Shown: positions 715 to 59,397 of the stretch, one piece after another
Numbering within the stretch: the first letter of the stretch is position 1
How the letters are laid out: every line of letters starts with the position of its first letter
Source: Elusimicrobiota bacterium
GTDB lineage: Bacteria > Elusimicrobiota > Elusimicrobia > UBA1565
Length of the DNA stretch: 64,000 bases
NCBI GenBank assembly: GCA_043819795.1
Contig: JBDREN010000083.1
Span: forward strand, 5,298 to 69,297
Direction: 5' to 3'
Position numbers and translations under genes: made by a program
Notes under the pieces: generated by a model
The model's database searches: none
What the model was told of the DNA's origin: nothing
What the model saw: the letters and a program-made list of their open reading frames with translations, nothing else

Positions 715-2379
715 TTAGAACATTACCCTCAGGTTGAAGGATGTACGGTCGTCTTTGTAGTTGAACTGGCCGCTGAAGCGCGAATGGCGCTGCCGCCGGC
801 CGTAGGCGATCCCGGTGGACAGCCAGCGCCGGACCGCGTAGTCGGCGCTCAGGGTCCCGCCGTAGAGATCGTCGCGCCGGTTGGCCGACTCCCCGGACAC
901 GGTGGACGACTCCGGGTAGCGGTCGGTCTGGAGGCTCCCGTCGATGGACACCTTCAGCTTGTGGTACGTATGGCTGGCGCCCAGGCTGGCCCCCGTCGCG
1001 ACGTAATAACGGTTGCTGGAGAAGGTCGCCTCGTTGATCCTGCGGAACGCGCCGATCCGCACATTGGTGCGGCTTCCCGGGGCGTAGACCAGCTGGACGG
1101 AGGTCAGCAGATTCCGAACGTCCCTGTCGCCGCCGGCGGGGGCGTAGTCGTAGCGGCGCAGCTGCGCGTCGGCCTGGACTCGCCCCGAGAGCTTCGCCGT
1201 CAGGCGCCCGTCCACCCCCAGCCCGAAGCGGTGGGACTTCGAATGCTTCCGCGCTCCCGCGGAGTAGTGGATGATCTGGCGGCCGTAGGCGGCGAACAGG
1301 CGCGTCTTCGGCTGCAGCCGTATGCCCGCCTCGCCTTCTATCGAAAGCTCGAAGCGGTTGAGGTTAGAGGAAAGAGACGGGTCGAGGTACTTGTGCAGCA
1401 CGTGCAGCCCGGAAAGCTTGTAGACGAAGCGCCGGCTGCGGGCGTGATCGACGCTCACGCCGAGATCGGCCTTCGTGCGCCGCTTCCGGGCGACGAGCTC
1501 GCTGAAGGCCGGGTCCTCCGTGTTGAGATAGGTCTCCCACGCGCGCATCGAGACGCCCCTGCGCCCCTTGTGGGCGAAAGCCACCTTGATGAGCTGATCC
1601 ACGGAGTTGTTGGCCTTCGGCTGCCGGGAGTACGTGGTCAGCTTCGAGTCGTAGACCACGTCCAGGCGGTTGCGCCGGTTGAACGGGACGGCGAAGTCCG
1701 CTCCCAGGTTGTTCTGGGTGATCCAGGAGCTCCTCACTCCTCCGCCGGTGCGAGCCCCGTTCGCCCTGTCGGGCGGGACGAGATAGATGTTCGAGTCGTA
1801 TGTCTGCCTCAGGCCGTAGTACGGATGCACCTCGATGACCAGGCGCAGCTCCGGCTTCTTGAAGCGCGCCATCTTGTCGAAGGCCCTGGCCAGCCCGGCG
1901 AGCGGGTCCCAGGCGGCGGGTGGAGCGGGCTCCTCGGGGAGCGGGGGCCTGAGGGGAGCGGGCAGCTCTCCGGCCTTGGGCCCGGTCAGAGGCACGAACT
2001 GCCCGGCTCCGACACCGACGGCGGCCGCGCCGCGGGGGGTGACCTCGACCTCCCCGGCGTGGACGAGCATATGCCCCTCCCCTTCCGCGATCAGGAACGT
2101 GAACGAGTCGCCCTTGTCCGCGCGGACCAGCGTCTCCTCCACCAGCAGCAGAGCGTCACCCTCGACGATGGACGCGCGCGCGCCGGAAGGCAGAGAATAG
2201 CCGGAAGAACCGGGAGCGAGGCGGACCGGCCGCTTGTCCACCTCCAGGAGCAGCTTGTCCGAAAAACCGATGACCTGCAGCTTCAGGTCCGCCTTCGTTT
2301 GAGCCAAGCAGGTGTTCGCCGCGATGAGAAGGCCGGCAGCCGCTATACAAGCGCGGATACTCCGGTCCCAGTCAATCAT
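715..2379 (-). CDS. outer-membrane beta-barrel protein (554 aa from MIDWDRSIRACIAAAGLLIAANTCLAQT signal peptide; C-terminal ...FNLRVMF aromatic terminus typical of OMPs)
   Basis: ORF 715..2553; internal Met at 2379 followed by signal peptide; alternating beta-strand pattern and C-terminal F. Confidence 0.6.
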   Translation of the reverse strand: MIDWDRSIRACIAAAGLLIAANTCLAQTKADLKLQVIGFSDKLLLEVDKRPVRLAPGSSGYSLPSGARASIVEGDALLLVEETLVRADKGDSFTFLIAEGEGHMLVHAGEVEVTPRGAAAVGVGAGQFVPLTGPKAGELPAPLRPPLPEEPAPPAAWDPLAGLARAFDKMARFKKPELRLVIEVHPYYGLRQTYDSNIYLVPPDRANGARTGGGVRSSWITQNNLGADFAVPFNRRNRLDVVYDSKLTTYSRQPKANNSVDQLIKVAFAHKGRRGVSMRAWETYLNTEDPAFSELVARKRRTKADLGVSVDHARSRRFVYKLSGLHVLHKYLDPSLSSNLNRFELSIEGEAGIRLQPKTRLFAAYGRQIIHYSAGARKHSKSHRFGLGVDGRLTAKLSGRVQADAQLRRYDYAPAGGDRDVRNLLTSVQLVYAPGSRTNVRIGAFRRINEATFSSNRYYVATGASLGASHTYHKLKVSIDGSLQTDRYPESSTVSGESANRRDDLYGGTLSADYAVRRWLSTGIAYGRRQRHSRFSGQFNYKDDRTSFNLRVMF

Positions 2380-2439
2380 CCTGGACGATGGGCGCGCCGC
2401 ATCCGATAGCGATTCCTCCTTACGACGACAATCCGGCAA

Positions 2440-2480
2440 GAAAAACGCCGCGGCGCCCCCCGCGGGGGGGTTTGTCGCGG
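2440..2480 (-). terminator. GC hairpin (CCCCCCCGCGGGGGG / CGCCGCGGCG) followed by TTTTTCTT on minus strand between LysM gene and OMP gene; terminator or attenuator
   Basis: Palindrome plus T-run read on minus strand; sits between a TTGACA-17-TATCCT promoter-like sequence and the AAGGAGG of the OMP leader. Confidence 0.3.
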
Positions 2481-2604
2481 CGTCAATGGTCCTAAAGTCC
2501 TTATAGGACTTTTGGGAACATCGAAGGATAACCGAAATTACGCGATTTGTCAAGACTCTACACGCTCTTTTCGCAAAGTAGCCTTACTGTGGCGGAGCCT
2601 GCCC

Positions 2605-3378
2605 TCACCTCTTGACCACCGGCACCAGCAGCTTCTGGCCCGGCGTCAGCTCCCCTCCGCGCTGGATCCTGTCGTGATTGGCCTGATACAGCTCGATCCA
2701 GCGCTCGGCGCTCCCGTAAAGCTTGGTCGCGATGCTGCGCAGCGTGTCTCCCCGCCGGACCACGTAGATCCGCGCCCGCGACTCCTCGGAGGGAAGGCCC
2801 CCGTCGCGGAGCGTGGCCTCGATGACGTCGAGGCGCTTGCGCGACTCCTCGGCCTCGCGCTTGGCGCGGCGCGCCTCCGCCTGGGCCTCTTCGACCTCCC
2901 TCTTGAGTTTGTCGAGCTCCTCGGACGACGGAGCGGGGACCTCGACAGAATCCCCCGCCTGCCCCGGATCCGGCGCGGCGGCCGCCGGCGCCTCGACCTG
3001 GATCACCTCCGGGGGACGCGAAGCCTTGGCCGCCCAGCCTGTTCCCGGCGGGGCCTCCACCGTCAAGCGGTAAGCCGCCGAGAGCGCCTCTTCGGGGATC
3101 GCGGAATCCTCTCCCAGGGTCGCGATGAAACGCCCCTTCTCGGCCAGAACGTAGCGGGACTCTCTCCAGACCTCCTTGCCACCGGCGAATTCGTTCCAAA
3201 GGCGGAAGTGCAGCAGGAAGGTCCCGTTCTGCGGTTGGCCTCCGGAATCGGTGAGCTCCCCGGAATATCGCAGGGTCGTCCTGCCCGCGGATGCCGGCAG
3301 ACACAGGATCATGACCGCCAGGGCCGCCAAAGCGCACGGACGAACGCCGGATGTGGATGTGTCGCGCGTCGTTCTCAT
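2605..3378 (-). CDS. LysM-domain periplasmic protein with signal peptide and central coiled coil (257 aa)
   Basis: Start MRTTRD at 3378 with GGAGGA SD; ATGA overlap with upstream response-regulator stop; C-terminal LysM motif YVVRRGDTLRSIATKLYG...YQANHDRI...L.PGQKL. Confidence 0.8.
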   Translation of the reverse strand: MRTTRDTSTSGVRPCALAALAVMILCLPASAGRTTLRYSGELTDSGGQPQNGTFLLHFRLWNEFAGGKEVWRESRYVLAEKGRFIATLGEDSAIPEEALSAAYRLTVEAPPGTGWAAKASRPPEVIQVEAPAAAAPDPGQAGDSVEVPAPSSEELDKLKREVEEAQAEARRAKREAEESRKRLDVIEATLRDGGLPSEESRARIYVVRRGDTLRSIATKLYGSAERWIELYQANHDRIQRGGELTPGQKLLVPVVKR

Positions 3379-10600: not shown

Positions 10601-12225
10601 CGGCGCACCTGCTCCAGCGCGATCTCGTAGCGGCGCACCAGCTCGGCCTCCCGCAGGTGCCACTGCTTATCGAGGTTCTTCTCCTTCTGGATGTACTCCG
10701 AGATCACGGTCTGCTTCCACGTCCGGAACTGCTCCTCGATCGTCTGCTGGGTCCTCTCCAGCTCGGCGACCCGGGCCTGGTAGGCCTCCTCGAGCGTCCG
10801 GTCGCGCTGCTCGAACTGCGACTTCAGGGAAGCCCGCTCGGCCTCGACGGCCTTCTCATGCTCCTCGAGGAGCTCCATCTTGCGGCGCGTCCACTCCTCG
10901 CGCAGCGCGTTCTCCTTCGCCAAGTACTGCTCCTGCATCTCCACGTGCTTGTGCTGGGAGGCCTCCTCGAGCGCCTTCTCGCGCTCTTGCACGCGGTTCT
11001 CGGCCTCCGCCCAGCGGGCGTTGAACTCGGCTTCGAGGGCGGTGCGTTGGCGGTCCCCGTCGCGCTGGACCTCGGCCTCCCGCCGCTCGAGGTCCCGGGA
11101 CCGCGCCTGATACTCCTCCTCGAGGGCCTTGGCGCGCTGTCGCGCCCGCTCGGCGGCTTCCGCCTTTTCCTTCTCGAGCTCGTCCTCGACGCGCTTGAGC
11201 AGCTGCGCCTCCTTACGGATGTGGCTCTGCTGCTGCTGGGTCTCCATCTCGGCGTAACGCGTCTCCACGCTCTTCACACGCTTCTGGAAGTCCTCCTCCA
11301 GCTCCCGACGCCGGCGCTCGAGAAGCCCTTCGATCTCGCGCGAGCGGTCGGCCAGCGCGCGGGCACGCTCCTCGAACTGCTCCTGCACGGCCGTATCCAG
11401 CTTCTCACGCGCATCCTTCGCGCGCTGCCACAAGCCGTTCTCGAGCTCCGCCCAGGCGGCCTGCAGCTCGGCCTCGCGCTTGCCGTACTTCTCCTGCAGG
11501 GCGAGCTCCTTGGACCGGAACTCCCCGAAGAGCTTCTCCTCGCGCTCCTGGAGCTTGAGCTCGCCCTCCTTCGCGGCGGCGGCCAGCACCCGCTGGAACT
11601 CCTCGTTCTTGCGCCTAAGATCGAGTATCTCGCGCTCCTTGAGCTCGAGCTCCGCCTCGCGGTTCTTCAGCGTGTTGAGGATCTCCTCGTCGCGTTTCTG
11701 GCGCAGCCGCTGCACCATATCCTGGTCGCGGTGGAAACGGTTGACGAGCTCGGCCTTCTCGCGCTGGGAGGCCATCAGCTCGGCGTCGCGCTGCTCGAGA
11801 ATGCGCCTGAGCTCCCGCCACTGCTCCTCCTTGGAGCGGTGCGTGCCCTTCCACTGCTGGACCTCTGCCGTCAGGCGGGACAGCTCCTCGTCCATGTGCC
11901 CGCGGTCGCGCTCCACGCGCGTCCGTTCCTCTTCGCGGACCTCGAGACGCACACGGTCGCGCCAGCGCTGCTCCTGATCCCGATGATTCTTGCGCTCCTC
12001 CTCCCAGCCTTTGGACTCGTCCTTCCATGCGGCGACCTGTCTCGTCAACTCCTCCTTCTCCTGCTGGAGCATCTGCTGTCCGTTCTGGGCTTCCTGGAGG
12101 TTCCCCTTGAGGCGCACATTCATATCCTGGAGGTCACGGATCGTGGCCACGGCCCCCCGGATCGCAAGTCGCGCAGCTTCCAGATCGGTTATCTCTCGAT
12201 ATGCCTCTTCATCCCATGGGTTCAT
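4627..12225 (-). CDS. giant (~2530 aa) coiled-coil sensor histidine kinase: ~2250 aa of E/R/K/A/L/Q-rich heptad sequence then HisKA (IAHQIRNPL) + HATPase_c (GTGLGLGVA)
   Basis: Single ORF 4627..12309; real start MNPWDEEAYRE at 12225 supplied by upstream repeat unit (GGGAGGcgaccATGA); no TM segments evident; internal 58-codon tandem duplication. Confidence 0.85.
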   Translation of the reverse strand: MNPWDEEAYREITDLEAARLAIRGAVATIRDLQDMNVRLKGNLQEAQNGQQMLQQEKEELTRQVAAWKDESKGWEEERKNHRDQEQRWRDRVRLEVREEERTRVERDRGHMDEELSRLTAEVQQWKGTHRSKEEQWRELRRILEQRDAELMASQREKAELVNRFHRDQDMVQRLRQKRDEEILNTLKNREAELELKEREILDLRRKNEEFQRVLAAAAKEGELKLQEREEKLFGEFRSKELALQEKYGKREAELQAAWAELENGLWQRAKDAREKLDTAVQEQFEERARALADRSREIEGLLERRRRELEEDFQKRVKSVETRYAEMETQQQQSHIRKEAQLLKRVEDELEKEKAEAAERARQRAKALEEEYQARSRDLERREAEVQRDGDRQRTALEAEFNARWAEAENRVQEREKALEEASQHKHVEMQEQYLAKENALREEWTRRKMELLEEHEKAVEAERASLKSQFEQRDRTLEEAYQARVAELERTQQTIEEQFRTWKQTVISEYIQKEKNLDKQWHLREAELVRRYEIALEQVRRAARMEMEKTKEEHDQRRQRDEADLFGRSEKMKQDYARLERDLEDRYDRREAEAKDAHAAEVRALKEAQGRHLLQQARHLDAEYERREAEWKLRVKNLKEGHQSELLEREKQLSEKDLELSRVREEFEKLDAEKRALWEDLQSRERRHEAERVSIQEAQKRREAQREEKYIEMERGLQELWTGKEREYLSRRQEALQAQAQRFAETVQALEAERQKEREQHAAALAEADSQLAVRFEAWKRDALAESEKEKEQWLERQRRMTIREREQQKEHARAHLEALNAESNEREGELAKRRDALQAYHRKREEELADEWRLRERRFIEEQQVVLTRERQSLDELYRSREETLHSNYVSLEKQLKDDRAHKAQLLEEESAEKLKRSLKEQEDGIQRKVRQSEAEFEVKRAAQLESQRAVLEEEYERKQLELEKLQAQLQKEMREKETRLDKSYLEREAELEKRWSQRESELLQKVDEERESYRARIRYETERIAGEMREAIAQREAELKNQQDNLEREYKRRLAESRAEMKKRNDAWLDHQRREIAKEYQHFQEEHRKAMAAQAAELESRVKDLDSRRQALEAEYKSKDESLGEDLRRREQAMVSEMQDNQSRERAALDALYREREDALQKNFLQLEAELKAEWEHKQDLSKREAEDRLAAELRSFTERLNEREARWEDESRRKLEAALEKQRAALEAEYDRREGELDRLRFELEKAIRSQEADLEKAHQQRLSELESDFRKREDAANNERAQAMERLERRKVESESERAEMHRAFEDRQREMDLVLRGREEAIERERTRIEDETGRKKRELETSRMDEEKRLQEREARLEREFEKRKEESRSALAARESELRAALVEERRRLQETYEEHERVLAERQAELIYKEKQLDQAAEQRQDELARKEKALEEARLALEERAREGEADLQRAYSAREEQLRAGFAKRDAELSARTQRERKAFQEELAHRRSLLESEHGDRAAEVESAVRQKEEELAAERERLEAELARRMRELDASKLQVEKSLRERETQLENAFRAREEGVRSASALRERELRAGFERDRETLAAEQQTLEQAVRARQAELERKTEELESARKRVEDSLRKREQALEESFAQSEAELRDALAMEQQKQEQGVRARQAELERQTEGLGAAQKRVEDSLRKREQALEESFVHREAELRKELADQRTELAARFERERQEQVREIESKSAALAERSRDVEKARAGLEAEYRNRQEELQAAYQARHGELERERAELAAEEVRRSRELESFKSGVAREYRERERALEKAVSEKEAELRRAREEAEAEVSGHLDAQREALREDWAKAKAELEVEVEESRRKLKARETELREAYARKETAMRESVEEREAELERERSDLRQSVAAEREALERARAGLDARRAELERDFRERETALQREHLGREEELQRAWKKREEALLNEVSEAQERNRAELRKSSEEMHVALRDEMARREEGLDAERAALQKEFLHKVEEARRGIRREERARYDRDLQTKEDDLRAQLKEKEEEFRLHAESLEDQLRKREDLLEKQGEERRLAHERDLDAQLEHERRLLRESQRAADEDQARRREELEREMRTVLAEKESALLAANRKRLVVERTRLEAEFDERRKELEEQSAVQVEQTARLQGERLQKQQETASSELHKREAELDARDKALKEREQSGEKRLMDESAQKEAEVERRREEVEELLRGTDKKLRERLKNEEAELERRRRKLDEEMTARERQSQGREDKLAGAEVDIERRQRELRQLRDRLLSGLKPEAETGRLPQVAFETELTDLVFGIAHQIRNPLGIIQSLAEDRLSGLWVGGKERATMDAILRAIGNLRERLEQLTDFTRPLGLKPQALEVEAWIDSAVAEVARQCDEKHIRIVADVAEGVPELRGDSERLKEALLHLLLNSIEAMPEGGTLTIRARYQAARGTVRVEVSDTGAGVAPEHVKDVGRPFYTMKAGGLGLGVAIAKRIVAAHGGSFEFRSKKDAGSTSTVTLSVEAKRG

Positions 12226-12348
12226 GGTCGCCTCCCATGGAGATGGACGCGGCCATCCCCTGCGCGATGCTCGGTCATGGTCGCCTCCCACGGCAGTCGA
12301 CGCGACCATTTCCTGCGCTATGCTCGGTCATAACACTGCCTCCAGGTA
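12222..12348 (-). repeat. two tandem 57-nt copies of SD/start-codon-bearing intergenic repeat (mini-ORFs MTEHSAGNGRVDCRGRRP* and MTEHRAGDGRVHLHGRRP*), with own GGAGG SD, ATGA-coupled to each other and to the giant HK start
   Basis: Reverse complement matches repeat at 50606-50719 and 59231-59397; internal 8-bp inverted repeat ATGGTCGC/GCGACCAT; GGGAGG 6 nt before terminal ATG. Confidence 0.7.
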
Positions 12349-15167: not shown

Positions 15168-18100
15168 ATGCGGCGGACCAATGGGCCCAGGTGGGTTCTA
15201 CTCGCGGCCTGCGCGTTGAGCCTCCAGGGCGCCGCCCGCGCCGGGACCGGTCCCCGTCCCTCTCCGAAGAGACTCCAGGAAGAGAAGCTGCCCGGCGCCA
15301 TCGTCGCGAGGCTCCCTGTTCCCGCCGCCTTCGCGTCTCCGGGGGCCCCGGCTTCGACGCTCTCCTCTCCGGCGGTCCTGCTCGCGCGGGAGATCGATGA
15401 GCTGTTCGCCGGCCTGAGCAGTGAGACCAACGACGGCACGCGGGCTCTCCGCCAGCCGGCTCCGGAAAAAGCCCCGCCCCGGGGAACCGGCTCCGGACGG
15501 CTTTCGTCGCGATCGTCTCCCGCGGCGGGAACGCGCGAGCCCGCCGAGGTTTTCGCCGCCCTGGACCGACGGCTCTCCGACATCCGCGCCCGGATCATCG
15601 ATACGATCGACGATCCCGAGGAGGTCGCGATCCTCCTGGCCCGCGTCGACCGGATCCGTGGCGTCCTGGCCAAGCTCCGGAGGGCCGGGGAAACGGGCCA
15701 AGCCCGTTCCCTGTCCGGGGCGATGGCCGGACTGGCGCGGGCCCTCGGGCGGGGGACCGATGACGAGAACCTCTCCAGGTTCGAGACCCTGGTCGACCGC
15801 CTGATGCAAGCGCGGTCGCTGCCCCCCGACCGGCTCGGAACGATCTTCGACAACACGCCCGAGTTCCCGGACAGCGATGTTCTCGCCCCCGTCCCGGCGG
15901 AGGGCTTCAAGGCCCGGGCCCCGCGAGCAAGGGCGAGCGGAGCGGGCGTTTCGCAAGCGGCCCTGTTGGACATCGACCGCTACCCACGGCCCCTGACCGG
16001 GATCCGTGTCGACGGCGGCGTCGTTCCGAAGCCGAGAGGGCCGGGAACCTCGGCCAAGGCCGAGCCGGAGTCCGAGGTCGGCCGCCCACAGCGACGAGCG
16101 GTCACCGCTTCGCAGGGGCTTGAGCGCTCGGCTGTCGCGGCGCTCTCGCCCTTCGCGGGACTGAGCCCGAAAGGCCGCCAGGACCTGTTCCGAAAGGACC
16201 GGGCCGCTCTCAGGCGGGAGCTGCTCGCCGTCGGACTCCGGGCGCTCGAGGAGGGCGACGCGGAGCTCGAGCCGTATCGGGAGGATCTGGACGCCGCGGA
16301 CGGAAGGCTCTCCGGGATGCGTAAAGCGCTGCTGGCCCGGCTCGGGTTCGATGCGCCCCCGCACAACGACCAGGAGCGCAGCGGGCGGTTCGCGACTCTC
16401 ACGAAAGAAGCCCCCCATCTGTCTCTCTATTTCGCGCGGCGCGGGATTTACCAGATGCGCATGCGGCAGGCCCACGGCGAGCATGCCGTGCCGCCGGAGA
16501 CGCGCTTCGCACCCTGGGAACTCGGCATCGAGGACGGCAGCGAGAAAGCCGTCGTCTACGCTACGGCCAAGGACGGCGACCGCACGTTCTACGGGCTGCG
16601 CCGGGAGTTCCAGGACGGCTCCTCGCGCTTCGCGGCGACCGACGGAGCGGAGGGGCTGGTCGTCGTGGTGTCCCCCTCCGATAGCCGCGAGATCCGCACG
16701 CGTATCCGTTTCGACGACCAGGGCCGGCCGGATCGCACCCGGACCTCGATCATCGACACGGGGACCGGCAAGAGGATCCGGGAGGAGATCGCCGACATCG
16801 CGCGGGCGCTCACGCGCTTCGTCGATTACGATCAAGCCGGCGACGCGGTGAGGGTCCTGACCCTGGACAGCGGCACCGGCGAGCAGGTGGTGGAGGACCG
16901 CCGGCAGGGCCGCCGCGTCGCGACCGACAAAGACGGAAAGGTCACGATCACGCCGATCCGAGGCGGAGCCCAAGCCTGGCAGCAGCAGGGCCGGCTCGAT
17001 GAGAGCGGCCGCTTCATCCTCGACCGCCTGGTGCGCGAAGACGGCAGCGTCGTCGAGCGCGTCAGCCCGCACGTCCTGAAGATATCGCGAGACGGCAAGG
17101 CGCAGGGCTATGAGATCGTCGTCGACTCCATCTTCCATGGCGCCCGGGGGCCTGAGCGCGAAGCGGAGTCCTCCAGGATCGCCCGCGAGATCATCGCGGC
17201 GCTCGGCTACCAGGACAAAGACGACCGGCGCTCGCGCCCCCTTAGCAACTGGCTCTCCGACACCTGGACGAAGGACGAGCGGACGCGCGGCGTCGCGATG
17301 ACGGTCGATCCGCGCGGAAGGTTCCAGGTCGTCTACAGCTACAAAGACGGGACCAAGCGCATCGAGCGCGCCAAGTACGGCCTTTCGACCTCGTACGGCG
17401 ACGGGAAGCGGGAGCTCGCGCTCGTGACGCTGAGGCCGGTCCATACCGACCGCCAGGGCCGGGCGCGGCTGGACCCCCGGCGCTACCGCGAGTACCTGGC
17501 CGGCGGCGGCTACAACCAGTGGCATTCCACTTTCGAGTTCAAGAAGGCCGGCTGGTTCTCGAACGCGAAGACGATCGAGCACGTCTCCCTCATCCGCTAC
17601 GGCCGGGACGGAAGCCTTCCACGCCTGGGTCCCGGGAGCGGGGGCGAGCGGGACGGAGACTCCGGCAGCGGCCGCTGGACGGAACGCGGCCGGGAGAAGA
17701 AGGACGAATTCGTCAATGAGGTCGGCGGGACATCGACCTTCGGCATCGTGGGGACCGCGATCCATGAGGCGCCGGTGGTCGGGGACGTCCTGCAGGCCGG
17801 CGGAGCGGTCGGAAAGACGCTCTGGACGGGCATCATGGCGGCTCCGCCCACCTTCATCTATGCGGTCACCAAGGACACGGATTACGGCCTCGCCATGTCG
17901 GGAAGCTACGCGAAGAACCCCCTGGTGAACCGTCTGGTGGGAGACCAGGGACACCTCGACCGCATGGACGGCAAGATGTGGGAGGTCGTCCTTATCGAGG
18001 CCCGCGAAAACCGCCGAAAAGACCTCGATCAGATGGGCTACACCGAGGGGAATACGGACCCGGAGGAGCATCAGCGTTTGCTCTCCCAATGGCGCGGAGA

Positions 18101-20408
18101 CCGCTTCGTGTCCCCCGAGGATTGCCTCAAATCACATCCGCGCGGCTATTGCGATCGGTTCCGGTACAGCAGAGAGGAGCTCATGCGCGCGGTGCGCGGC
18201 TACGGCGCCCTGACCTGGGGCGACCGCCTGATCGAATCGGCCGAGGGCAAGAAGGGCGCGGCCTACTGCGCCACGGCCGGCGCGGGGTGGGGGCTCAAGG
18301 TGTTCGAGAACGTGGGCGAGACGCTCTTCAATCCCGTCATCTGGGCCACTTTCGGCGTGGGCAAGGGAGTGCAGGCCATGACGGCCATGCGCGCCGCGGG
18401 CAACAGCTCGCTCGCGGTCTCCGGCGCGCTCTCCACCGCTCGCGTCACGCACGCGCTCTTGAGCACGACGCTCTACAGCACGTGGGTCGTGGGCGGGGTG
18501 GACAACCTCGGCCAGACCGTGGTCGCGCTCCAGGAAGGCGACAGAGAACAGGCATTGAAGAAGTCGGCCGACCTCGGCACCGATCTCTTCTTCGTCTGGA
18601 TGATGGCCCGCGAGTCTCGCAGCCACAAGCTCCGCCAGAAGGCCCGACAGGCGCTCCTAAAGGAGCAAAGGCTGATCACAAAAGAATACAAGGCCGCTTC
18701 CAAAGCGGTCCGCACTAAGTCCGCGCACGCGACGAACGGCAAAGCCCCGGTCAAGAGCGCCGAGAAGGCGCTCCAGTCCAAGGCCGCGCACGCGACGAAC
18801 GGCAAAGCCCCGGTCAAGAGCGCCGAGAAGGCGCTCCAGTCCAAGGCCGCTCACGCGACGAACGGCAAAGCCCCGGTCAAGAGCGCCGAGAAGGCGATCC
18901 GTTCCAAGGCCGCGCACGCGCAGAAGCCCGCGAAGCCGGCCCCCGAGCCAAAAACGGAGGCCGCACGGGGCAAGACGACGGGCAAGGGCGAGACGCGGGC
19001 CACGAGCGGAGCCCCCAAGAAGCCGGCGCCGAGGACGATCAGGGAGCGCATGCACGAGTGGAAGGCCCGCCTGGTGGAGAACAAGCCCAGGGTCATGGAC
19101 TTTCTGAAGAAGCGTATGCCTAAGCTCAAGTCCTCTCAAGCATCCAAGGCCAAAGCGCTCAAGGCGCGCCAGACCGCAAGGCACACCAAGGCGAACCGGG
19201 CGAAGAAGACGGAATCCAAGTCCGGCAAGAATGCGAAGAGGGGAGGCGAGTCGCCGCTCCGGAATCTCGGCGAACGAGTCGTGGCGGTCGCCAAATCCTT
19301 GATCTCGAAGGGCAAGACGACGGGAAGGAAAGCCCGCAACGCCGGCAAGCTCAAGAAGGCCGCTGTCGCGCCCCGCGCAATCCTGAGTCCCGAGCTCAAC
19401 AGGTTCGCCTCCGAGACGGAGCCCGTACCCGCACCGGACCCGGCGGACTCGGACGCGCGATACACCGCCGATGAGGAGCCTGGAGAAGAGGCCGGCGTGG
19501 ATCCCGGGCAGCGCGGAGAAGACGACGGCCGCGCCGCCCGGGATGCCGCGAAGCCCCGGGCCGAGCCCTTGATCGGAGCCGGCCGCGCGGCGGATTCTCC
19601 CGCCGGCGCCCCGGATTCCGGCGGGGATCAGGCGAGCCCAGGCTCAGGCGGCGATTCCGGAAGCGAAGCCGGCGGCGGCGAGACCGGTTCGGGCACGGGA
19701 AGCGGCGCTCTGGGCGGCGGAAGTCTCGCGAGCGGATCGGGGAGCGGAGGCTCGGGCGGCGGCCGCAAGGGTGCGGGGCGGAATCCCCGCGTGCATGGGC
19801 GGGCGGGACAGAAGTTCGACGGTGGACGGACTACCGTCGCTCGCCTGACCCCGACTTCCCCCCGGCCGTTGCCCTCCCTGCAACCGGAGCGGCCCCGAAT
19901 CATGCCGAGAGCCCCCGAGCCCATAGATCCTTACCGCCAAGCGCACGCTTCGCCGGAGCGCCGGTCCGTCCCGCCAGTCGAGGAGAAACCCGCGCCCCGG
20001 GTGTCCAGGAAGAGTTCGCCGCCCGGGTTCAACGCGACGGGCGGGTCGGGCGGGTCTCTAGCGCCCGGCGGCCCGGAGTTCAAACCGCGGGACCCGTTCC
20101 CCGAGGGCAGGAAGGCGGCTCCGCCGGCGACACCTTCCCCGCCCCGAACCGAGGCGCGCAGCGGCGCTCCCGCCGCCGCGGCCGCCTCTCCCGCCGCGCA
20201 CGACGGCTTCTTCGAGATCCCGCGACACCGCCTCCGCCCGGCCGGCCACCTCCCCAACGGCCGCCTTCCCGAACGGGGGCAAGAGAGCCCCTACCGCGCG
20301 CACGCGCTCAGCCTCCTGCTGGAGCTGGCCGGGCTGGGGGCCGCGATCTACCTTTTTAGGCTCTCAAGATTCCCGTTCCTTATCGGCATCGCGCGCAAAC
20401 GTCTCTGA
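15168..20408 (+). CDS. giant secreted/membrane-anchored protein (1746 aa): signal peptide, large unknown domain, 3x21-aa tandem repeats, lysine/alanine-rich histone-H1-like basic region, G/S-rich and P-rich low-complexity region, C-terminal TM anchor
   Basis: Single long ORF; N-terminal MRRTNGPRWVLLAACALSLQGAARA; C-terminal LSLLLELAGLGAAIYLF; contains two in-frame copies of the 45-nt GC palindromic repeat. Confidence 0.7.
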   Translation: MRRTNGPRWVLLAACALSLQGAARAGTGPRPSPKRLQEEKLPGAIVARLPVPAAFASPGAPASTLSSPAVLLAREIDELFAGLSSETNDGTRALRQPAPEKAPPRGTGSGRLSSRSSPAAGTREPAEVFAALDRRLSDIRARIIDTIDDPEEVAILLARVDRIRGVLAKLRRAGETGQARSLSGAMAGLARALGRGTDDENLSRFETLVDRLMQARSLPPDRLGTIFDNTPEFPDSDVLAPVPAEGFKARAPRARASGAGVSQAALLDIDRYPRPLTGIRVDGGVVPKPRGPGTSAKAEPESEVGRPQRRAVTASQGLERSAVAALSPFAGLSPKGRQDLFRKDRAALRRELLAVGLRALEEGDAELEPYREDLDAADGRLSGMRKALLARLGFDAPPHNDQERSGRFATLTKEAPHLSLYFARRGIYQMRMRQAHGEHAVPPETRFAPWELGIEDGSEKAVVYATAKDGDRTFYGLRREFQDGSSRFAATDGAEGLVVVVSPSDSREIRTRIRFDDQGRPDRTRTSIIDTGTGKRIREEIADIARALTRFVDYDQAGDAVRVLTLDSGTGEQVVEDRRQGRRVATDKDGKVTITPIRGGAQAWQQQGRLDESGRFILDRLVREDGSVVERVSPHVLKISRDGKAQGYEIVVDSIFHGARGPEREAESSRIAREIIAALGYQDKDDRRSRPLSNWLSDTWTKDERTRGVAMTVDPRGRFQVVYSYKDGTKRIERAKYGLSTSYGDGKRELALVTLRPVHTDRQGRARLDPRRYREYLAGGGYNQWHSTFEFKKAGWFSNAKTIEHVSLIRYGRDGSLPRLGPGSGGERDGDSGSGRWTERGREKKDEFVNEVGGTSTFGIVGTAIHEAPVVGDVLQAGGAVGKTLWTGIMAAPPTFIYAVTKDTDYGLAMSGSYAKNPLVNRLVGDQGHLDRMDGKMWEVVLIEARENRRKDLDQMGYTEGNTDPEEHQRLLSQWRGDRFVSPEDCLKSHPRGYCDRFRYSREELMRAVRGYGALTWGDRLIESAEGKKGAAYCATAGAGWGLKVFENVGETLFNPVIWATFGVGKGVQAMTAMRAAGNSSLAVSGALSTARVTHALLSTTLYSTWVVGGVDNLGQTVVALQEGDREQALKKSADLGTDLFFVWMMARESRSHKLRQKARQALLKEQRLITKEYKAASKAVRTKSAHATNGKAPVKSAEKALQSKAAHATNGKAPVKSAEKALQSKAAHATNGKAPVKSAEKAIRSKAAHAQKPAKPAPEPKTEAARGKTTGKGETRATSGAPKKPAPRTIRERMHEWKARLVENKPRVMDFLKKRMPKLKSSQASKAKALKARQTARHTKANRAKKTESKSGKNAKRGGESPLRNLGERVVAVAKSLISKGKTTGRKARNAGKLKKAAVAPRAILSPELNRFASETEPVPAPDPADSDARYTADEEPGEEAGVDPGQRGEDDGRAARDAAKPRAEPLIGAGRAADSPAGAPDSGGDQASPGSGGDSGSEAGGGETGSGTGSGALGGGSLASGSGSGGSGGGRKGAGRNPRVHGRAGQKFDGGRTTVARLTPTSPRPLPSLQPERPRIMPRAPEPIDPYRQAHASPERRSVPPVEEKPAPRVSRKSSPPGFNATGGSGGSLAPGGPEFKPRDPFPEGRKAAPPATPSPPRTEARSGAPAAAAASPAAHDGFFEIPRHRLRPAGHLPNGRLPERGQESPYRAHALSLLLELAGLGAAIYLFRLSRFPFLIGIARKRL
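15899..15946 (+). repeat. 45-nt GC-rich palindromic repeat copy, in-frame inside giant secreted protein (EGFKARAPRARASGAG)
   Basis: Match to consensus GGAAGCCTTCAACGCCTGGGCCCCGCGAGCGAGGGCGAGCGGGAC. Confidence 0.6.
17606..17657 (+). repeat. 45-nt GC-rich palindromic repeat copy, in-frame inside giant secreted protein (GSLPRLGPGSGGERDG), flanked by GGACGGA direct repeats
   Basis: ggacggaagccttccacgcctgggtcccgggagcgggggcgagcgggacgga. Confidence 0.6.
18717..18905 (+). repeat. 3 x 63-bp perfect/near-perfect tandem repeats encoding KAAHATNGKAPVKSAEKALQS
   Basis: Units start 18717, 18780, 18843; partial fourth unit. Confidence 0.8.
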
Positions 20409-24305: not shown

Positions 24306-25730
24306 GTGCCGAAGCCGGAACCGACACCGCGGCCGGAGACCCCGCCCATAGCGGGACGGAAGCCTTCAACGCCTGGGCCCCGCGAGCGAGGGCGAGCGGG
24401 ACGGACGCGCCGGCTGCTGGCCTTCGCGTTGCTCGCCGGGGCGTTGGCGCGCTTCGCAACGGCATTCCTCTATTGGGAAGCGCCGCTCAGCCCGGGCGGC
24501 GATGACCTCCAGTACCATGAGCTGGCCTCCGGGATCGCTTCCGGGCGGGGATACCTCCTGCAGGACGAGCCGAGCGCCTACCGCGGCCCTCTCTACCCCC
24601 TCTTTCTGGCGGCGGCCATGCGGGTGACGGCCAGCGACGCGCCCGGCGTCCTCCGGCTCATCCAGGCGATCCTGGGCCTGCTGGCCCTCTGGCTCGTCTA
24701 CCGTCTAGGCGCGGCCATCCATTCCCCCGAGGCGGGCGCCTGGGCGGCGATGCTCATGGCTCTCTATCCGGAGCAAGTCCTGCTCCCGACGTCGCTCTAC
24801 ACCGAATGCTTCTACGCCTTGATCCTGCTCGTCGTGGCGTGGGCGCTCGCATGCTGGCGGCAAGACCCCCGGCCGGCGCGGCTCGCGGGGCTCGGCGCCG
24901 CGATCGGCCTGAGCCTGCTGACGCGTTCGACGCTGGCGGCCTTGCCCGTCCTGCTCGCGGCTTGGCGGCTCGCGGAGCTCCGCGCCGGACGACGGTGGCT
25001 GCGGGAAACCGCCCTTCTCGCCGTGACCGTTCTGCTGCCGCTCACGCCCTGGATCGTCCGCAACTACGCGCGTTTCGGCAGGGTCATCCCCATGGAGACC
25101 GGCGTCGCCGGTCCCGCGTTATGGTACGCCTCCAAGGGCTGGGTCACGGCGCCCTCGGACATGTCCAGCGTGGAGCCGATGAGGACGATGTACCGGAGGC
25201 TTCCGCATACCGAGTGGGACCGCTTCGCGACGCCGCGAGCCCTGCGCAACATGCGGGCCCGCCCGATGGCGTATCTTCTCGGATGCGCGAAGAGGGCTCT
25301 CTACCTTTGGACCACCGCATACACCCCCTACCTGCTCTACTACCACCACCGCCTCTCGGCGTGGATGCAGAGCGGCGGCCGCTGGAGCTGGATCGCCCTG
25401 GGCGACTGGCTCCTTCGGCTCTGCCTGATCCTGCCGGGGGCCTGGGTACTGCTCCGCAGCGCGCGAAAACGCGGCGGAAGCCTTCAGCGCCTGGGCCCCG
25501 CACCGGCCTCCAACGCAAATCCAAAGGGAGGCCGGCACGGCGCCCCTACCGGGGTGGACGCCGCGAGCACGGGCGAGCGGGGGCTTTGGGCGGTGGCCGG
25601 TTTGGTCCTATACTTCCACATCCACGTCTTCGCGACGGTCTTCGTCCGCTACATGGCGCCGGTGACGCCCCTGCTGTGCGTCCTGGCCGGGGCGGGGTGG
25701 GCCGAGTGGCGAGCCTCGCGCCGAGGCTAA
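24306..25730 (+). CDS. GT-C family membrane glycosyltransferase (ArnT/PMT-like, GT83-type); start uncertain (GTG), N- and C-terminal regions each carry a copy of the 45-nt repeat
   Basis: Multiple TM helices, motif LSPGGDDLQYHELASGIASGRGY; repeat copies at 24353-24406 and 25474-25583 in frame. Confidence 0.7.
   Translation: MPKPEPTPRPETPPIAGRKPSTPGPRERGRAGRTRRLLAFALLAGALARFATAFLYWEAPLSPGGDDLQYHELASGIASGRGYLLQDEPSAYRGPLYPLFLAAAMRVTASDAPGVLRLIQAILGLLALWLVYRLGAAIHSPEAGAWAAMLMALYPEQVLLPTSLYTECFYALILLVVAWALACWRQDPRPARLAGLGAAIGLSLLTRSTLAALPVLLAAWRLAELRAGRRWLRETALLAVTVLLPLTPWIVRNYARFGRVIPMETGVAGPALWYASKGWVTAPSDMSSVEPMRTMYRRLPHTEWDRFATPRALRNMRARPMAYLLGCAKRALYLWTTAYTPYLLYYHHRLSAWMQSGGRWSWIALGDWLLRLCLILPGAWVLLRSARKRGGSLQRLGPAPASNANPKGGRHGAPTGVDAASTGERGLWAVAGLVLYFHIHVFATVFVRYMAPVTPLLCVLAGAGWAEWRASRRG
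24353..24406 (+). repeat. 45-nt GC-rich palindromic repeat copy (gggacggaAGCCTTCAACGCCTGGGCCCCGCGAGCGAGGGCGAGCgggacgga), translated as [15 protein letters not shown]
   Basis: Best-conserved exemplar; 8-bp flanking direct repeat GGGACGGA. Confidence 0.65.
25474..25583 (+). repeat. 45-nt repeat copy split by a ~62-nt nested hairpin insertion (CCGGCCTCC..GGAGGCCGG)
   Basis: 5' half ggaagccttcagcgcctgggccccgca and 3' half cgcgagcacgggcgagcggggg separated by insertion. Confidence 0.5.
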
Positions 25731-32600: not shown

Positions 32601-32927
32601 TCGGGCCCGCGGCGTCCCCCCGGGACCGACGCCCTTCGGACCGAAGCGCAGGCTGTGACGCCCCCGGCGGGCGCCGTTGAAGCGCCGTACCGCGGCGCGC
32701 GCCCGCCGAGACCTCCCCACCGCGCGCGTGCGGGGCGGCTCGGGCCGGTCCAGGCCGAAGCGTCCGGCGTCGTCGCGATGATGCGGCTCCGGACGCACGG
32801 CGAACGCGGCGCGGGCGCCGCCCGCCATGAGCAGCGCGGCCAACGCCCCGGAAGTCATCAACACACGGGCCCCGCGAGCCGGGGCTCGCGGGGAGACCGC
32901 CGGAGGCCTGGATACCCGGCGCATCAC
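29637..32927 (-). CDS. secreted zinc metalloprotease (fungalysin/thermolysin-like, HEYVHFV) with C-terminal T9SS-type sorting domain (ends KKVIVVK)
   Basis: HExxH motif VRHEYVHFV; propeptide-like N-terminus; C-terminal ~80 aa matches Por secretion CTD pattern (FNPSRGEFTTIRYEI...GIYLLNLEAPG...KKVIVVK). Alternative start 32858. Confidence 0.75.
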   Translation of the reverse strand: MMRRVSRPPAVSPRAPARGARVLMTSGALAALLMAGGARAAFAVRPEPHHRDDAGRFGLDRPEPPRTRAVGRSRRARAAVRRFNGARRGRHSLRFGPKGVGPGGTPRARVEAREVAVAFLREYGPELGLRADELRLELGRTAGGIHHLLFEQVVEGVPVEFSRVKVHLDEAGAILSLQSSYRPGVRESPVPRLDEAAAALRAAADLGGAAPRPRGGRLVFFPLRGSDAVRLAWRFRVSGRGGGWIYYVDAGSGEILLRYNDLRFQAACASSGTVTGNVYDIDAGTSPLSVRPFKNQRVYVVDSSTFALTDANGFFCSQTAGKIFTSLQGPYVHVANFNVPNAHYDNGGGKWKTFSTPLSSPHPYSNDAVLISTINATPQDAPGAVKLLPVFSSFDVGGIEFFAGDLEITDDDQVAILDADGYPVAGYLGNRGPFNGAAVAGTQLRLRLKSNESGTRNGFDISHSSYLYLTNSPGSSDNATATFTWTTARTFDGTEDEINLFYHINRMHDYFADGPNSADGADIDKPVPVMARAGPGLSNAFYDPLHENLMFGDVGNSLALDASVVRHEYVHFVVDQIYPIINFGQFGAISEALADYFAASSLGNSAIGTYANVGFQSEGALRELDCPSETACVIFPAHWTGAIHDDSRMISQAVWGLRGQLMTQLGAANGQACADGLVFQALFFFPDSFEDFLEAMLEVDKRAAALVAACGGDNLRGGDIVNAFALHNIVLNPPDEDVYEPNNGIQSATDITTAPVISARIYPAADLDYYAFGAAEGLIRLTLTLPQDPGFPGTYRAYSMSLIDSRYEIVRKAGPVIDINPTLGGYCPDTGCRTSSRKVVLEYVSPRSDQYFLVVSAPEGDEYALVTNNNSTEFYGLEAEYSRAGPVASSIVAASFDNDVISFEVRVATFVTSQNYMFHHARLRDHALRVLPGTATDGASPFLTFVSSSNGLGRVSGTLALASGFNERFRAVGTVHLEVFGGNPLGHVQSLGFSPAINLTADRTALTPFNNVFNPSRGEFTTIRYEIQSAGHVRLRLFTRTGRHVLTLIDEFKPAGKGSVDWSGANRLGSRVASGIYLLNLEAPGIRETKKVIVVK

Positions 32928-37415: not shown

Positions 37416-38773
37416 GCCGCGGCGTCCTGCTCGCGGCGTCGTGCGCCTTGGCCGCCGTGGCCGCCGCGGCGCCCCTATCGGGGAGCCGCCCGGAGGGCCC
37501 GCCGGCACGCTCACGCGCTTTTGTGGCAAGCGCGGTACTGCACACTCCGGCGCCGGAAACACCCTCGGCACCGGCCGGTCCCGGCGTCGTTCCGGGGCCG
37601 GGTCCTGTGCCGGGCTCGCCGCCGCGCGCGGCCGCGGCGGAGTCCCTCACCCCCGCGAGCCCGTCGGAACCGATCATCGCGGTGGGCATCGCCCACAGGG
37701 TCCCGAAGATCACGGTGCGTCCGGAGGGCCGATTCTCGGTCATAGACGAGACGACCGGCGAGATGAAGCGGCTCGAGCGCGGACGCGCCTACACGGTCGA
37801 AGCCGACGAGGGAGAGCGCCTCATCCTGGGGCCCTTCCTCTTCTTCGGCCCGACGCGGCTCCTGCCCGGCCGGCCCGAGGAGTATGTCCTGATCGGGGAG
37901 CGCAAGTACCGCGGGAATCTGGTTTTCCGCCCGAATAAAGACGAGACGATCACCGTCATCGATGAGTTGGGCCTCGAAGAATACCTCTACGGGGTCCTGC
38001 CGACGGAGATGAGTCCCGAATGGCCGCTCGAGGCTCTCAAGGCCCAGGCCGTCGTCGCGCGCACCTTCGCGCTCAACAACCTCGGCAAGTACTCTTCCTC
38101 GGGCTACGACCTGACCGACGACTCCCGCAGCCAGATCTACACCGGGATCACGATCGAATCCGTCCGGGTCCGGCGAGCGGTGAAGGAGACGGCCGGCCAA
38201 GTGATCTATTGGCGCGGGAAACGCCTCCCGGTCCACTTTCATTCCTGCTGCGGAGGCCGCACGACCGATCCGGCCTCGGTCTGGGGCCCGTTGCGGACCG
38301 CCGACGCCGGAGAGCGGGGCGCGGCCGAGAGCCCGCGCCCCCTGCGCGGCGTGCGCGATCGCTACTGCCAGGACACGCCGCACTACGGCTGGACGGCGTA
38401 CTTCAGGAAAGACGACATGCTCCGGGCGCTCCAGCGCGGCGGCCACAACGTGGCCACCCTCACGGCGATCAAGCCCGGGCGCCGGACCTCTTCGGGCTAC
38501 CTCCGGTACCTCCGCCTCAAGCTCGACGGCGCCTGGAGACGCGTGGCGGCCAACGACCTGAGGATGTGGCTCGGCCCCGCCGAGCTAAAGAGCACGCGGA
38601 TACGACGGGTGACCCGCCGGCGCAAGGGCTTCGAGTTCGCCGGGCGCGGCTACGGGCACGGCGTCGGCCTGTGCCAGTGGGGAGCCCGCGTCCAGGCCGA
38701 GCGAGGCGGCGGATACCGCGATATCCTGGGATTCTATTTCCCCGGAGCGGAAATCGGCCCGCGGGAGCGCTAG
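37412..38773 (+). CDS. SpoIID/LytB-domain protein (amidase enhancer-like)
   Basis: Signal peptide, proline-rich linker, SpoIID motifs [39 protein letters not shown]. Confidence 0.75.
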
Positions 38774-38774
38774 C

Positions 38775-38825
38775 CACGGAAACCTTCAACGAGCGGACCC
38801 CGCGAGCGAAGGCCGGCGAGACGGA
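38775..38825 (+). repeat. 45-nt GC palindromic repeat, divergent copy 1 of tandem pair in spoIID-queA spacer
   Basis: cacggaaaccttcaacgagcggaccccgcgagcgaaggccggcgagacgga. Confidence 0.5.
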
Positions 38826-38829
38826 GGCC

Positions 38830-38888
38830 GGGACGGAAGCCTTCAACGCCTGGGTCCCGCGAGCAAGGGCCAGCGAAGCGCGGTCCCG
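38830..38888 (+). repeat. 45-nt GC palindromic repeat, copy 2 of tandem pair
   Basis: gggacggaagccttcaacgcctgggtcccgcgagcaagggccagcgaagcg. Confidence 0.6.
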
Positions 38889-38890
38889 GT

Positions 38891-39960
38891 ATGGGGAATC
38901 CGTTCCCGGGGCGAGCGGTTTTCGCCTCGAAGACTACGAATTCGCCTATCCCCGATCACTCATCGCCACGGCTCCCGCGACCCCGCGCGACGCGGCGCGC
39001 ATGCTGGTGCTCGACCGGACGACGGGCCGGATCGAGCATCGCCGCTTCCTCGACCTGCCCCAATACCTGCGGCCCGGGGACTGCCTCGTCCTCAATCGCA
39101 GCAAGGTCCTCCCCGCCCGCCTGGTAGGGCGCAAACCGACCGGCGGCAAGGTCGAGCTCAACCTCGTCCGCCGGCTCGCGCCGGACCGCTGGACCGCGCT
39201 CTCGGCGAACCTCAAGCCCGGCGTCGAGGTGCTCTTCCCCGGCGGGATCCGCGCCTCCGTCGAGAGCCTCGACCCCGAAGGCGAGTGGATACTCAGGTTC
39301 TCGGTCGGGGAGGTGGAGCTCCTCATGCTCCGCCACGGTCACGCGCCGCTTCCCCCCTATATCCAGAAGCGGCGCAAGCGGCTGCCGCCGGCCGCGGTCG
39401 AGGACCGGGACCGCTACCAGACCGTCTATGCCCGCGAGGAAGGCTCGGTCGCGGCGCCGACGGCCGGCCTGCACTTCACTCCCGAGCTGCTCGAAGCGCT
39501 GCGGCGGCAGGGCGTGCGCGTCGCGGAGGTGGTGCTCCATGTGGGCCGCGGCACGTTCCGGCCGGTCACCGCCCGCGACATCCGGGCTCATCGCATGCTG
39601 CCCGAGAGGTTCTACATCCCGGACGGGACGGCCGCCGCGCTCCGAGAGGCCCGCCGCGACGGAGGCCGCGTCATCGCGGTCGGAACGAGCAGCGTCCGCA
39701 CCCTGGAGACGATAGCCCGCCGCGGAGGCGGGGCCAACGGGGCGCACTCCCCCATCGAGGAGACCGAGCTCTTCATCCTGCCCGGCCACCGCTTCCTTTC
39801 CGTCGACGCCTTGATCACCAACTTCCATCAGCCGGCCTCCACGCCCCTTCTGCTGACATCCTCCTTCGCCGGACGCGAGCGTCTGCTCGAAGCCTACCAC
39901 GCGGCCATCGCCCGGGAGTACCGCCTCTTCTCCTACGGCGACTCGATGCTCATCGTTTGA
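38891..39960 (+). CDS. queA: S-adenosylmethionine:tRNA ribosyltransferase-isomerase QueA; N-terminus unresolved (conserved frame has no in-frame start after spoIID stop; ATG 38891 is in the -1 frame, possible 1-nt indel in G-run 38905-38912)
   Basis: GFRLEDYEFAYPRSLIA..LVLNRSKVLPARL..GRKPTGGKVE aligns with E. coli QueA from residue ~4. Confidence 0.75.
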
Positions 39961-50609: not shown

Positions 50610-50719
50610 CCGAGCATAGCGCGGTTTCGGCTGCGTGCCTCAGCCATTCCCTCGCGTTTGGCCGCAAACGCTTCGGTCACAGGAATGGTCGCGTCGATCG
50701 CCGCGGGAGGCGACCATGA
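50606..50719 (+). repeat. 114-nt long form of SD/start-bearing intergenic repeat: mini-ORF GTG..TGA (37 codons) whose GTG overlaps upstream GT4 stop (GTGA) and whose TGA overlaps downstream GT2 ATG (ATGA)
   Basis: Near-identical to 59231-59344; internal hairpins GCGTTTG-gccg-CAAACGC and ATGGTCGC..GCGACCAT; GGGAGG 6 nt before ATG 50716. Confidence 0.7.
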
Positions 50720-59234: not shown

Positions 59235-59397
59235 CCGAGCATAGCGTGGTTTCGGCTGCGTGCCTCAACCATTCCCTCGCGTTTGGCCGCAAACGCTTCG
59301 GTCACAGCAATGGTCGCGTCGATCGCCGTGGGAGGCGACCATGACCGAGCATAGCGCAGGAAATGGTCGCGTCGATCGCCGTGGGAGGCGACCATGA
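59231..59397 (+). repeat. long (114 nt) + short (57 nt) tandem units of SD/start-bearing repeat between hldA and kdsB; GTGA overlap with hldA stop, ATGA between units, ATGA into kdsB
   Basis: Direct comparison with 50606-50719 (4 substitutions) and 12222-12335. Confidence 0.7.

Follow-up and report, generated by a model that had tools for sequence, protein, structure and literature searches.

A 45-nt GC-rich repeat resides in frame within genes of an uncultured Elusimicrobiota bacterium and is probably a lineage-specific selfish element

How can a short GC-rich repeat be scattered through the genes of a densely coding bacterial genome and leave their reading frames intact? This question is raised by a 64-kb stretch of a metagenome-assembled genome of an uncultured Elusimicrobiota bacterium (GCA_043819795.1, contig JBDREN010000083.1, positions 5,298 to 69,297), hereafter called the window, in which the original prediction, made from the DNA letters alone, had reported a family of ~45-nt palindromic repeats inserted in frame into protein-coding genes in the manner of Rickettsia palindromic elements (RPEs). 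We found a repeat family with a defined anatomy that resides in frame in its host genes, that is absent from their orthologues and from syntenic loci of relatives, and that occupies, in one host, a loop modelled as disordered. On balance, we consider it likely that this 45-nt family is a lineage-specific, non-coding selfish repeat, similar to RPEs or to REP (repetitive extragenic palindromic) sequences, that has multiplied in this genome.

An nhmmer profile made from ten copies and searched against the window identified 11 copies of the repeat (E-values from 4.9e-16 to 5.3e-5), corresponding to ~1 copy per 6 kb, dispersed on both strands. The ten coordinates given beforehand were all right to within a few bases, and the profile added an eleventh copy at 32844-32899. 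Owing to divergence among the copies, whose pairwise identity averages 74% (range of 61 to 89%), an exact 45-mer had a single match at ≤3 mismatches in the window; a 20-nt core of the repeat gave 8 matches versus 0.26 expected from shuffles, and a repeat-finding scan also recovered the family on both strands (families D1/D2/D4, inverted pairs I2-I20). Once a 63-nt nested insert was removed from one copy (c25470), the 11 copies could be aligned without gaps over 56 columns (alignment A11). That copies differing at a quarter of their positions show no indel at all would agree with frameshifts being selected against after a copy has entered a gene.

The consensus of the family is CGGGRCGGAAGCCTTCAACGCCTGGGCCCCGCGAGCGRGGGCGAGCGGGRCGG, in which the motif CGGGRCGG occupies columns 1-8 and then columns 46-53 of A11, giving a period of exactly 45 nt, which is 15 codons. 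The flanking direct repeats that had been proposed (GGGACGGA) are thus real: each unit of 45 nt (56 nt including both direct repeats; ~75% GC in a window of 68% GC) is bracketed by an 8-10-nt direct repeat, (G)CGGGRCGG(A), in which the R base is the same at both ends for 8 of the 11 copies. The unit starts with AAGCCTTCAACGCCTGGG and continues as an imperfect hairpin, GCCCCGCG-AG-CG-GRGG-CG-AG-CGGGRC; its 5' half is non-palindromic and its 3' half can form the hairpin, which is predicted to consist of eight pairs, a tandem G·A internal loop and two more pairs (26-28 nt, half of the conserved unit). Pairing holds in 82% of the alignment cells, compared with 28-46% when the partner is slid. The palindrome initially described exists as an imperfect hairpin across the family and as a perfect one (11 bp) only in copy c32844. 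Terminal inverted repeats were absent from all registers examined; the repeats at the ends are direct, and the 5' flank, nearly constant, has the same sequence as the 3' end and complements the 5' arm of the hairpin. On the reverse strand beside the stem, GTAG was found in one of the 11 copies (c61786 only) and CGTC in three (c17604, c24352 and c38772). A 10-nt inverted repeat around the copy in the kinase gene described below (CGATCTTGCC / GGCAAGATCG) was set aside as lying within the range of chance (1.2% per locus, with 11 loci tested).

Using the NCBI PGAP annotation (locus tags ABII00_*) for comparison, we found that ten of the 11 copies lie inside annotated or inferable open reading frames (ORFs) with the frame kept; eight of the 11 share the orientation of their host gene, and many are found where genes meet in densely packed operons. 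The window being ~90% coding, this fits a repeat that does not avoid genes. Our in-gene claim rests on comparisons with orthologues rather than on ORF length. These comparisons revealed extra residues at copies c25470, c51463, c56546, c58943 and c61786, and an N-terminal extension at c24352, bearing out the proposed residence in frame at these six places, while for the four other in-gene copies, two each in ABII00_05865 and QueA, we rely solely on the NCBI annotation. Orthologues were found to lack the segments rather than to carry them universally (alignments A2, A3, A9, A6 and A10): at six of the sites checked, located in an HldE-type kinase, a TPR protein, a GT39-like protein, KdsA and a GT2 protein, the extra residues were missing from all orthologues.

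The same DNA is read in five frame/orientation combinations, three sense and two antisense, showing that conservation is at the DNA level and that we are dealing with a DNA element, not with a protein motif. Five of the six frames of the unit are free of stops, and the sixth, the one with a stop, is never used at any site. Stop-free frames are the rule at 68% GC and not a special adaptation; the idea that they are special was dismissed, as 65% of 54-nt windows drawn at random from this sequence had five or more of the six frames open. The antisense ORFs that had been pointed out as spurious over repeat copies are likewise ordinary for DNA of 68% GC.

In the gene for the HldE-type heptose-7-phosphate kinase of the PfkB family (58131-59234), copy c58943 (58943-58998, + strand, E-value 9.4e-12) is read as ...RGAEALDTRAPRARARGAG..., and a 28-aa insert absent from 14 orthologues of 327-351 aa (A2) falls between two conserved strands, with the DVTGAGD motif following in the same frame. 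The Pfam PfkB match of this protein is split into two stretches at the insert. An AlphaFold (AF2) model of the kinase has a confident fold, with a mean predicted local distance difference test score (pLDDT) of 85.6 and a predicted template modelling score (pTM) of 0.85; insert residues 268-287, between strands 254-259 and 291-296, have a pLDDT <50, compared with >90 for the rest of the model, and constitute its only long low-confidence, unstructured stretch. The expectation that inserts fall in surface loops is therefore supported for the kinase, whose insert is modelled as a disordered loop between two strands. The other insert sites are termini or stretches between hydrophobic segments.

The TPR/PMT-like membrane protein ABII00_06040 (56037-58094) carries the antisense copy c56546 (56542-56597, - strand, E-value 6e-14) in a loop that exceeds its counterpart in 11 orthologues by 13-23 aa (A3). 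Two copies lie in the ORF of the GT39-like glycosyltransferase (24306-25730). The second of them, c25470 (25470-25592, + strand), was detected as two partial nhmmer matches (25470-25501 and 25565-25592) and is a complete copy split by the 63-nt (21-codon) nested insert (25502-25564), which carries a hairpin unique in the window, CCGGCCTCC(15)GGAGGCCGG, and preserves the GT39-like frame; this nested insert is possibly flanked by a CCGC duplication. Together (45 + 63 nt), they add 36 aa that are absent from 8 orthologues (A9), in the loop that joins the protein's last two hydrophobic segments. The copy that had first been flagged, c24352 (24352-24407, + strand, E-value 4.9e-16), is at the 5' end of the same ORF, within an extension of 33 N-terminal residues; the alignment with orthologues sets in at query residue ~34. 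The start assigned by PGAP, TTG 24444, removes residues that are conserved in orthologues, and the sole in-frame start upstream is GTG 24306.

At the start of kdsA (61772-62689), copy c61786 (61780-61835, - strand, E-value 2e-14) lies antisense in the first 25 codons, right after the pyrG stop (61785). KdsA, annotated by PGAP as 305 aa from ATG 61772, has 13 extra N-terminal residues compared with KdsA of the relative GWA2_69_24 (A6), and the kdsA ATG overlaps the end of pyrG by 14 nt in both genomes. Copy c51463 (51463-51518, + strand, E-value 1.2e-13) lies in the C-terminal tail of the family-2 glycosyltransferase (GT2) gene (50716-51519; PGAP 267 aa), adding 11 C-terminal residues relative to the GWA2_69_24 orthologue (A10). 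The tail ends in ...PGSLPRLGPASKGERKR*, and the GTGA stop/start overlap of the GT2 gene with the deacetylase gene is preserved despite the copy.

The remaining in-gene copies are those known from annotation. A tandem pair with a 57-nt spacing, c38772 (38772-38827, + strand, E-value 8.3e-11) and c38829 (38829-38884, + strand, E-value 2.9e-15), lies in the annotated N-terminal extension of QueA. PGAP calls QueA as 427 aa from GTG 38677, a start that creates a 97-nt overlap with spoIID and extends the protein by 81 aa; c38772 is found just after the spoIID stop (38773), c38829 is read as ...EAFNAWVPRARASEAR..., and no canonical in-frame start was found between the pair and the conserved QueA N-terminus at 38920. 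PGAP start calls are affected by repeats at 24306-24444 (GT39-like), 38677-38920 (QueA) and 61772-61844 (KdsA). Concerning the example peptides that had been put forward, GSLPRLGPASKGERKR corresponds to the GT2 tail and EAFNAWVPRARASEAR lies in the annotated QueA extension; translation of the third requires GTG 24306 to be the start. In the ORF of a 1746-aa orphan protein (15168-20408, ABII00_05865), c15893 (15893-15948, + strand, E-value 1.1e-11) is read as ...PAEGFKARAPRARASGAG... and c17604 (17604-17659, + strand, E-value 6.4e-14) as ...RDGSLPRLGPGSGGERDG..., both in the sense orientation; ABII00_05865 is annotated as one protein, and the codon-position GC pattern is equal on both sides of the copies. 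The same protein contains three 63-nt tandem units (KSAHATNGKAPVKSAEKALQS) at 18689-18925, a protein-level repeat. The eleventh copy, c32844 (32844-32899, + strand, E-value 1.6e-11), lies between the stop of a HEAT-repeat gene (32924) and a protease-like gene on the - strand (ABII00_05915, PGAP 1073 aa), whose annotated ATG (32858) falls inside the copy.

Genes of the window include two-component sensors, the 1746-aa orphan protein, ruvCAB, queA, tgt and secDF, together with genes of the lipopolysaccharide (LPS) core and Kdo pathways (waaA, heptosyltransferases, lpxK, the hldE-type kinase, kdsB, pyrG, kdsA and lptC). The syntenic LPS loci of three relatives (GWA2_69_24, GCA_041650695.1 and a JGI contig; 58.7 kb in total) have the same gene order and overlapping stop/start junctions, and none of them contains a copy of the repeat. 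The nearest orthologues are 65-76% identical in protein. Weak nhmmer matches were seen near orthologous GWA2_69_24 sites (E-values of ~1-4, one of them in the wrong orientation), and Shine-Dalgarno-like GGAAG/GGAG motifs at gene junctions are a likely confounder of these matches. One of them, at the 3' end of this relative's GT2 gene (L011 5559-5617; codons AFHTWV, GCCTTTCACACCTGGGTC) agrees at 16 of 18 positions with the 5' half of the element in c51463, GCCTTCCACGCCTGGGTC. This match lies ~45 nt upstream of the position of c51463 and is not significant (nhmmer E-value 1.2); it could be due to chance or be a hint of the origin of the element.

Wider searches were negative. An exact degenerate-pattern scan of 185,579 species genomes (GTDB) and of JGI metagenomes gave unrelated chance matches only, and the same scan of IMG/VR gave nothing. 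Rfam, used on the window with its gathering threshold and with an E-value, placed no family at any copy, a concatenated query of five encoded peptides had no match among 5.8 billion proteins, and no report of such repeats in Elusimicrobia was found in the literature searched. Some of the chance pattern matches share a motif, GGGAAGCCTTCGGCTCCTGGGCCCCGGCCTTCGCCGGGGAGC, found in a Sphingomicrobium genome and three metagenome contigs (L002 6101-6125, L004 3667-3691, L007 1993-2017 and L009 559-583), which looks like a conserved structured RNA or terminator of its group, unrelated to the 45-nt family.

How would a selfish repeat persist inside genes? Since the unit measures 15 codons, the frame of the host is kept automatically, and since high GC leaves five of the six frames open, an insertion only adds a Gly/Pro/Arg/Ala-rich peptide, which is probably disordered. 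Insertions into loops, tails and N-terminal leaders would then be nearly neutral and persist, and those into structured cores, or in the stop-containing frame, would be lost. Copies may spread by transposition in trans. Because there are no inverted termini, the hairpin is subterminal and the constant 5' flank is identical to the 3' end, our guess is that a hairpin-recognising single-strand enzyme, of the HUH/RAYT or IS200/IS605-like type, might insert the element beside a CGGGRCGG-like target.

Several points weigh against the interpretation of the 45-nt family as a mobile selfish repeat. The nearest relatives are distant, so that mobility is deduced rather than observed, and the insertions can be neither dated nor delimited exactly. 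No transposase was found among the ~40 window ORFs scanned against Pfam, and a test for a CGGGRCGG-like target motif where GWA2_69_24 has three empty orthologous sites fell short of significance (p = 0.43). The nearly constant direct repeat may be part of the element and not a target duplication, and the net insert sizes measured by protein alignment range from 11 to 28 aa and are not always 15 aa. The translation of c24352, c38772/c38829 and c61786 depends on the start codon that is really used, the two copies in the 1746-aa orphan ORF are placed in a gene by annotation and by the codon-position GC pattern, and our analysis covers 64 kb of one metagenome-assembled genome.

The window also contains a second family, with a 53-nt unit (ATGACCGAGCATAGCGCAGGAAATGGTCGCGTCGATCGCCGTGGGAGGCGACC(ATGA)), present at 59231-59397 (+ strand), 50606-50719 (+ strand) and 12222-12331 (- strand). 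Each unit is an 18-codon mini-ORF; a longer form, of 110 nt, encodes 37 aa. The start of the mini-ORF overlaps the stop of the upstream gene (GTGA) at both sites on the + strand. Its stop overlaps the following ATG (ATGA) at every one of the three sites, with a GGGAGG 7 nt before that ATG. The three sites are between pfkB and kdsB, between GT4 and GT2 genes, and upstream of the gene for a 2560-aa coiled-coil histidine kinase, itself marked by a 174-nt duplication at 7096-7443 and by many shorter internal repeats. In the three relatives, the pfkB/kdsB and GT4/GT2 pairs overlap directly, with no 53-nt unit. This family, which has no Rfam match, looks similar to mycobacterial interspersed repetitive units (MIRUs) and may be the more unusual of the two. 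In GCA_041650695.1 (JBAZKS010000021.1; L013 2646-2828), at least three near-identical tandem copies of yet another GC-rich unit, of 57 nt (19 codons), lie at the 3' end of a heptosyltransferase gene (1147..2832). Frame-compatible short repeats may be common in this clade.

A bolder interpretation, which we regard as rather unlikely, is that the 45-nt family represents an active and undescribed type of micro-transposition, in which a 15-codon cargo nearly indifferent to gene boundaries acts as a peptide-insertion mutagen, accompanied by a sister family that targets ATGA overlaps and restores coupling with its own ribosome-binding site. If this was true, the two families would constitute a class of mobile DNA that is "translation-compatible" and suited to high-GC operons of great compactness, and the 45-nt element would remodel the loops and termini of essential enzymes.

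Considering that the family has a recognizable hairpin and that many copies sit at junctions in tightly packed operons, one may ask whether it is rather a selected cis-element, recruited repeatedly since it is useful: an RNA hairpin stabilising or punctuating LPS operon transcripts, or a protein-binding site (the interrupted palindrome GGAAG-C-CTTCC). The pairing of the consensus hairpin, far above that with a slid partner, and the sense orientation of 8 of the 11 copies would agree with such a role. However, covariation in the 3' hairpin across the 11 copies was not above that of shuffles, an alternative helix, in which the 5' direct repeat would pair with the central arm, showed no covariation either, and the stem is broken in four copies (c38772, c38829, c51463 and c15893). 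Decaying hairpins without compensatory change fit selfish DNA rather than a selected structure. Moreover, copies folded one by one gain no stability over shuffled sequence (z from -2.3 to +1.0), most copies are in translated regions where ribosomes would unwind hairpins, the 8:3 orientation bias is not significant, and the same operon exists in three relatives without the element. A selected cis-element is thus an improbable explanation.

Another proposal is that the repeat is a minisatellite-like unit, comparable to MIRUs or variable number tandem repeats, generated by local duplication, slippage and gene conversion, with the multiple-of-three length imposed by the coding context. The tandem pair in the QueA extension, a unit length that is a multiple of three, flanking direct repeats that could prime slippage and the second, MIRU-like family in the same window would all agree with it. 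Nevertheless, the pair is the single tandem locus, and the copies occupy ten separate loci spanning 46 kb, in both orientations and in genes unrelated to one another, which local slippage cannot explain. We find this proposal distinctly less than plausible.

Could the residence in genes then be an annotation artefact of high GC, the copies being really intergenic or in spurious long ORFs? The window does contain 193 ORFs of at least 100 aa, most random windows of this sequence have at least five open frames as described above, several copies are translated or not depending on the start codon (c24352, c38772/c38829 and c61786) and c32844 is essentially intergenic. Yet conserved host sequence continues in frame on both sides of c58943, c56546 and c25470, c51463 is followed by the host stop and a coupled start, the kdsA start overlapping pyrG is conserved in a relative, and neither queA nor the GT39-like gene has a canonical downstream start that would spare the conserved N-terminus. 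For no fewer than four copies, the conserved host sequence flanking them refutes the artefact, which as a general explanation is very hard to believe. Finally, a protein-level module, meaning a conserved peptide motif common to several proteins, has next to no chance of being correct: Arg/Pro/Gly-rich peptides do recur (APRARA in two hosts), but the same DNA gives different peptides by site (such as GSLxRLGPxSxGER), DNA identity exceeds peptide identity, the peptide search found nothing and the five reading frames in use refute it.

Returning to the selfish repeat that we favour, how does it compare with known systems? [quoted passage not shown] The 45-nt family resembles them in being small and in this ability; MITEs, however, have terminal inverted repeats and site-variable target duplications, in contrast to the near-constant direct repeats found here. 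Hairpin elements derived from IS200/IS605 (PATE-like) have a subterminal hairpin, neither inverted termini nor a duplication, and a fixed place of insertion 3' of one short target sequence. The hairpin, the lack of inverted termini and the constant 5' flank of the 45-nt family are compatible with this type; no TnpA/TnpB was seen in the scanned window ORFs. MIRUs are tandem mini-ORF units located between cistrons, where they overlap the stop and the start of their neighbours. Reportedly described in mycobacteria by Supply and colleagues in 1997, they share with the 45-nt family short units compatible with a length of three n nucleotides, placed in operons where the translation of flanking genes is preserved, and the tandem pair seen here adds to this likeness. 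Unlike MIRUs, the 45-nt family lies inside genes and mostly as single copies, and it is the 53-nt family that matches their features instead.

REP sequences of the GTAG and CGTC super-families offer a closer precedent, as intragenic copies have been described in Opitutus terrae, Thauera, Xanthomonas and R. conorii (Di Nocera et al. 2013, PMC3733652), so that intragenic in-frame palindromic repeats are also known outside Rickettsia. Like the 45-nt repeat, REPs are short GC-rich stem-loops, some copies of which lie wholly in ORFs, at N- or C-termini or internally, encoding 20-30 extra residues that are missing from shorter homologues, and the CGTC type is without a known dedicated transposase. 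They differ in that the GTAG/CGTC tag is not conserved here (1/11 and 3/11 copies), that the unit exceeds 20-40 bp and has a non-palindromic 5' half and flanking direct repeats, and that REPs are mostly intergenic and often dimers, whereas the 45-nt family is made mostly of intragenic singletons.

The behaviour of the family is most reminiscent of RPEs, as was initially suggested, and this likeness of a unit of 45-56 nt and ~75% GC is one of analogy, not of membership. Ten families, RPE-1 to RPE-10 (Ogata et al. 2000), are summarised in PMC10969869, which reports 44 in-gene RPE insertions in R. conorii; for the 45-nt family, we count 10 of 11 copies in ORFs. In both cases, a dispersed palindromic repeat without a transposase of its own lies in unrelated housekeeping genes, preserves the frame and encodes peptides that orthologues lack, in segments predicted to be outside the folded core. 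RPEs are ~100-150 bp long and belong to AT-rich obligate intracellular alpha-proteobacteria, in contrast to the 45/56-nt, ~75% GC element of Elusimicrobiota; the RPE families were set apart here by size and description, and no sequence relationship is expected. By its size, composition, tags, direct termini and intragenic dominance, the 45-nt family is a member of neither the RPE nor the REP families.

For genome evolution and annotation, the family is a dense and solid example but no new principle. It suggests a rule by which a unit length of three n nucleotides and the scarcity of stop codons at high GC make genes permissive targets, and it offers natural insertion-tolerance maps for LPS-pathway enzymes. 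In metagenome-assembled genomes, such repeats affect annotation by inflating protein lengths, shifting starts (GT39-like, QueA and KdsA) and splitting domain matches (PfkB). Selfish palindromic repeats that colonise genes in frame have mostly been known from Rickettsia, apart from scattered cases of REPs in other bacteria; their occurrence in a high-GC member of a poorly known phylum indicates that the phenomenon is not confined to reduced AT-rich genomes.

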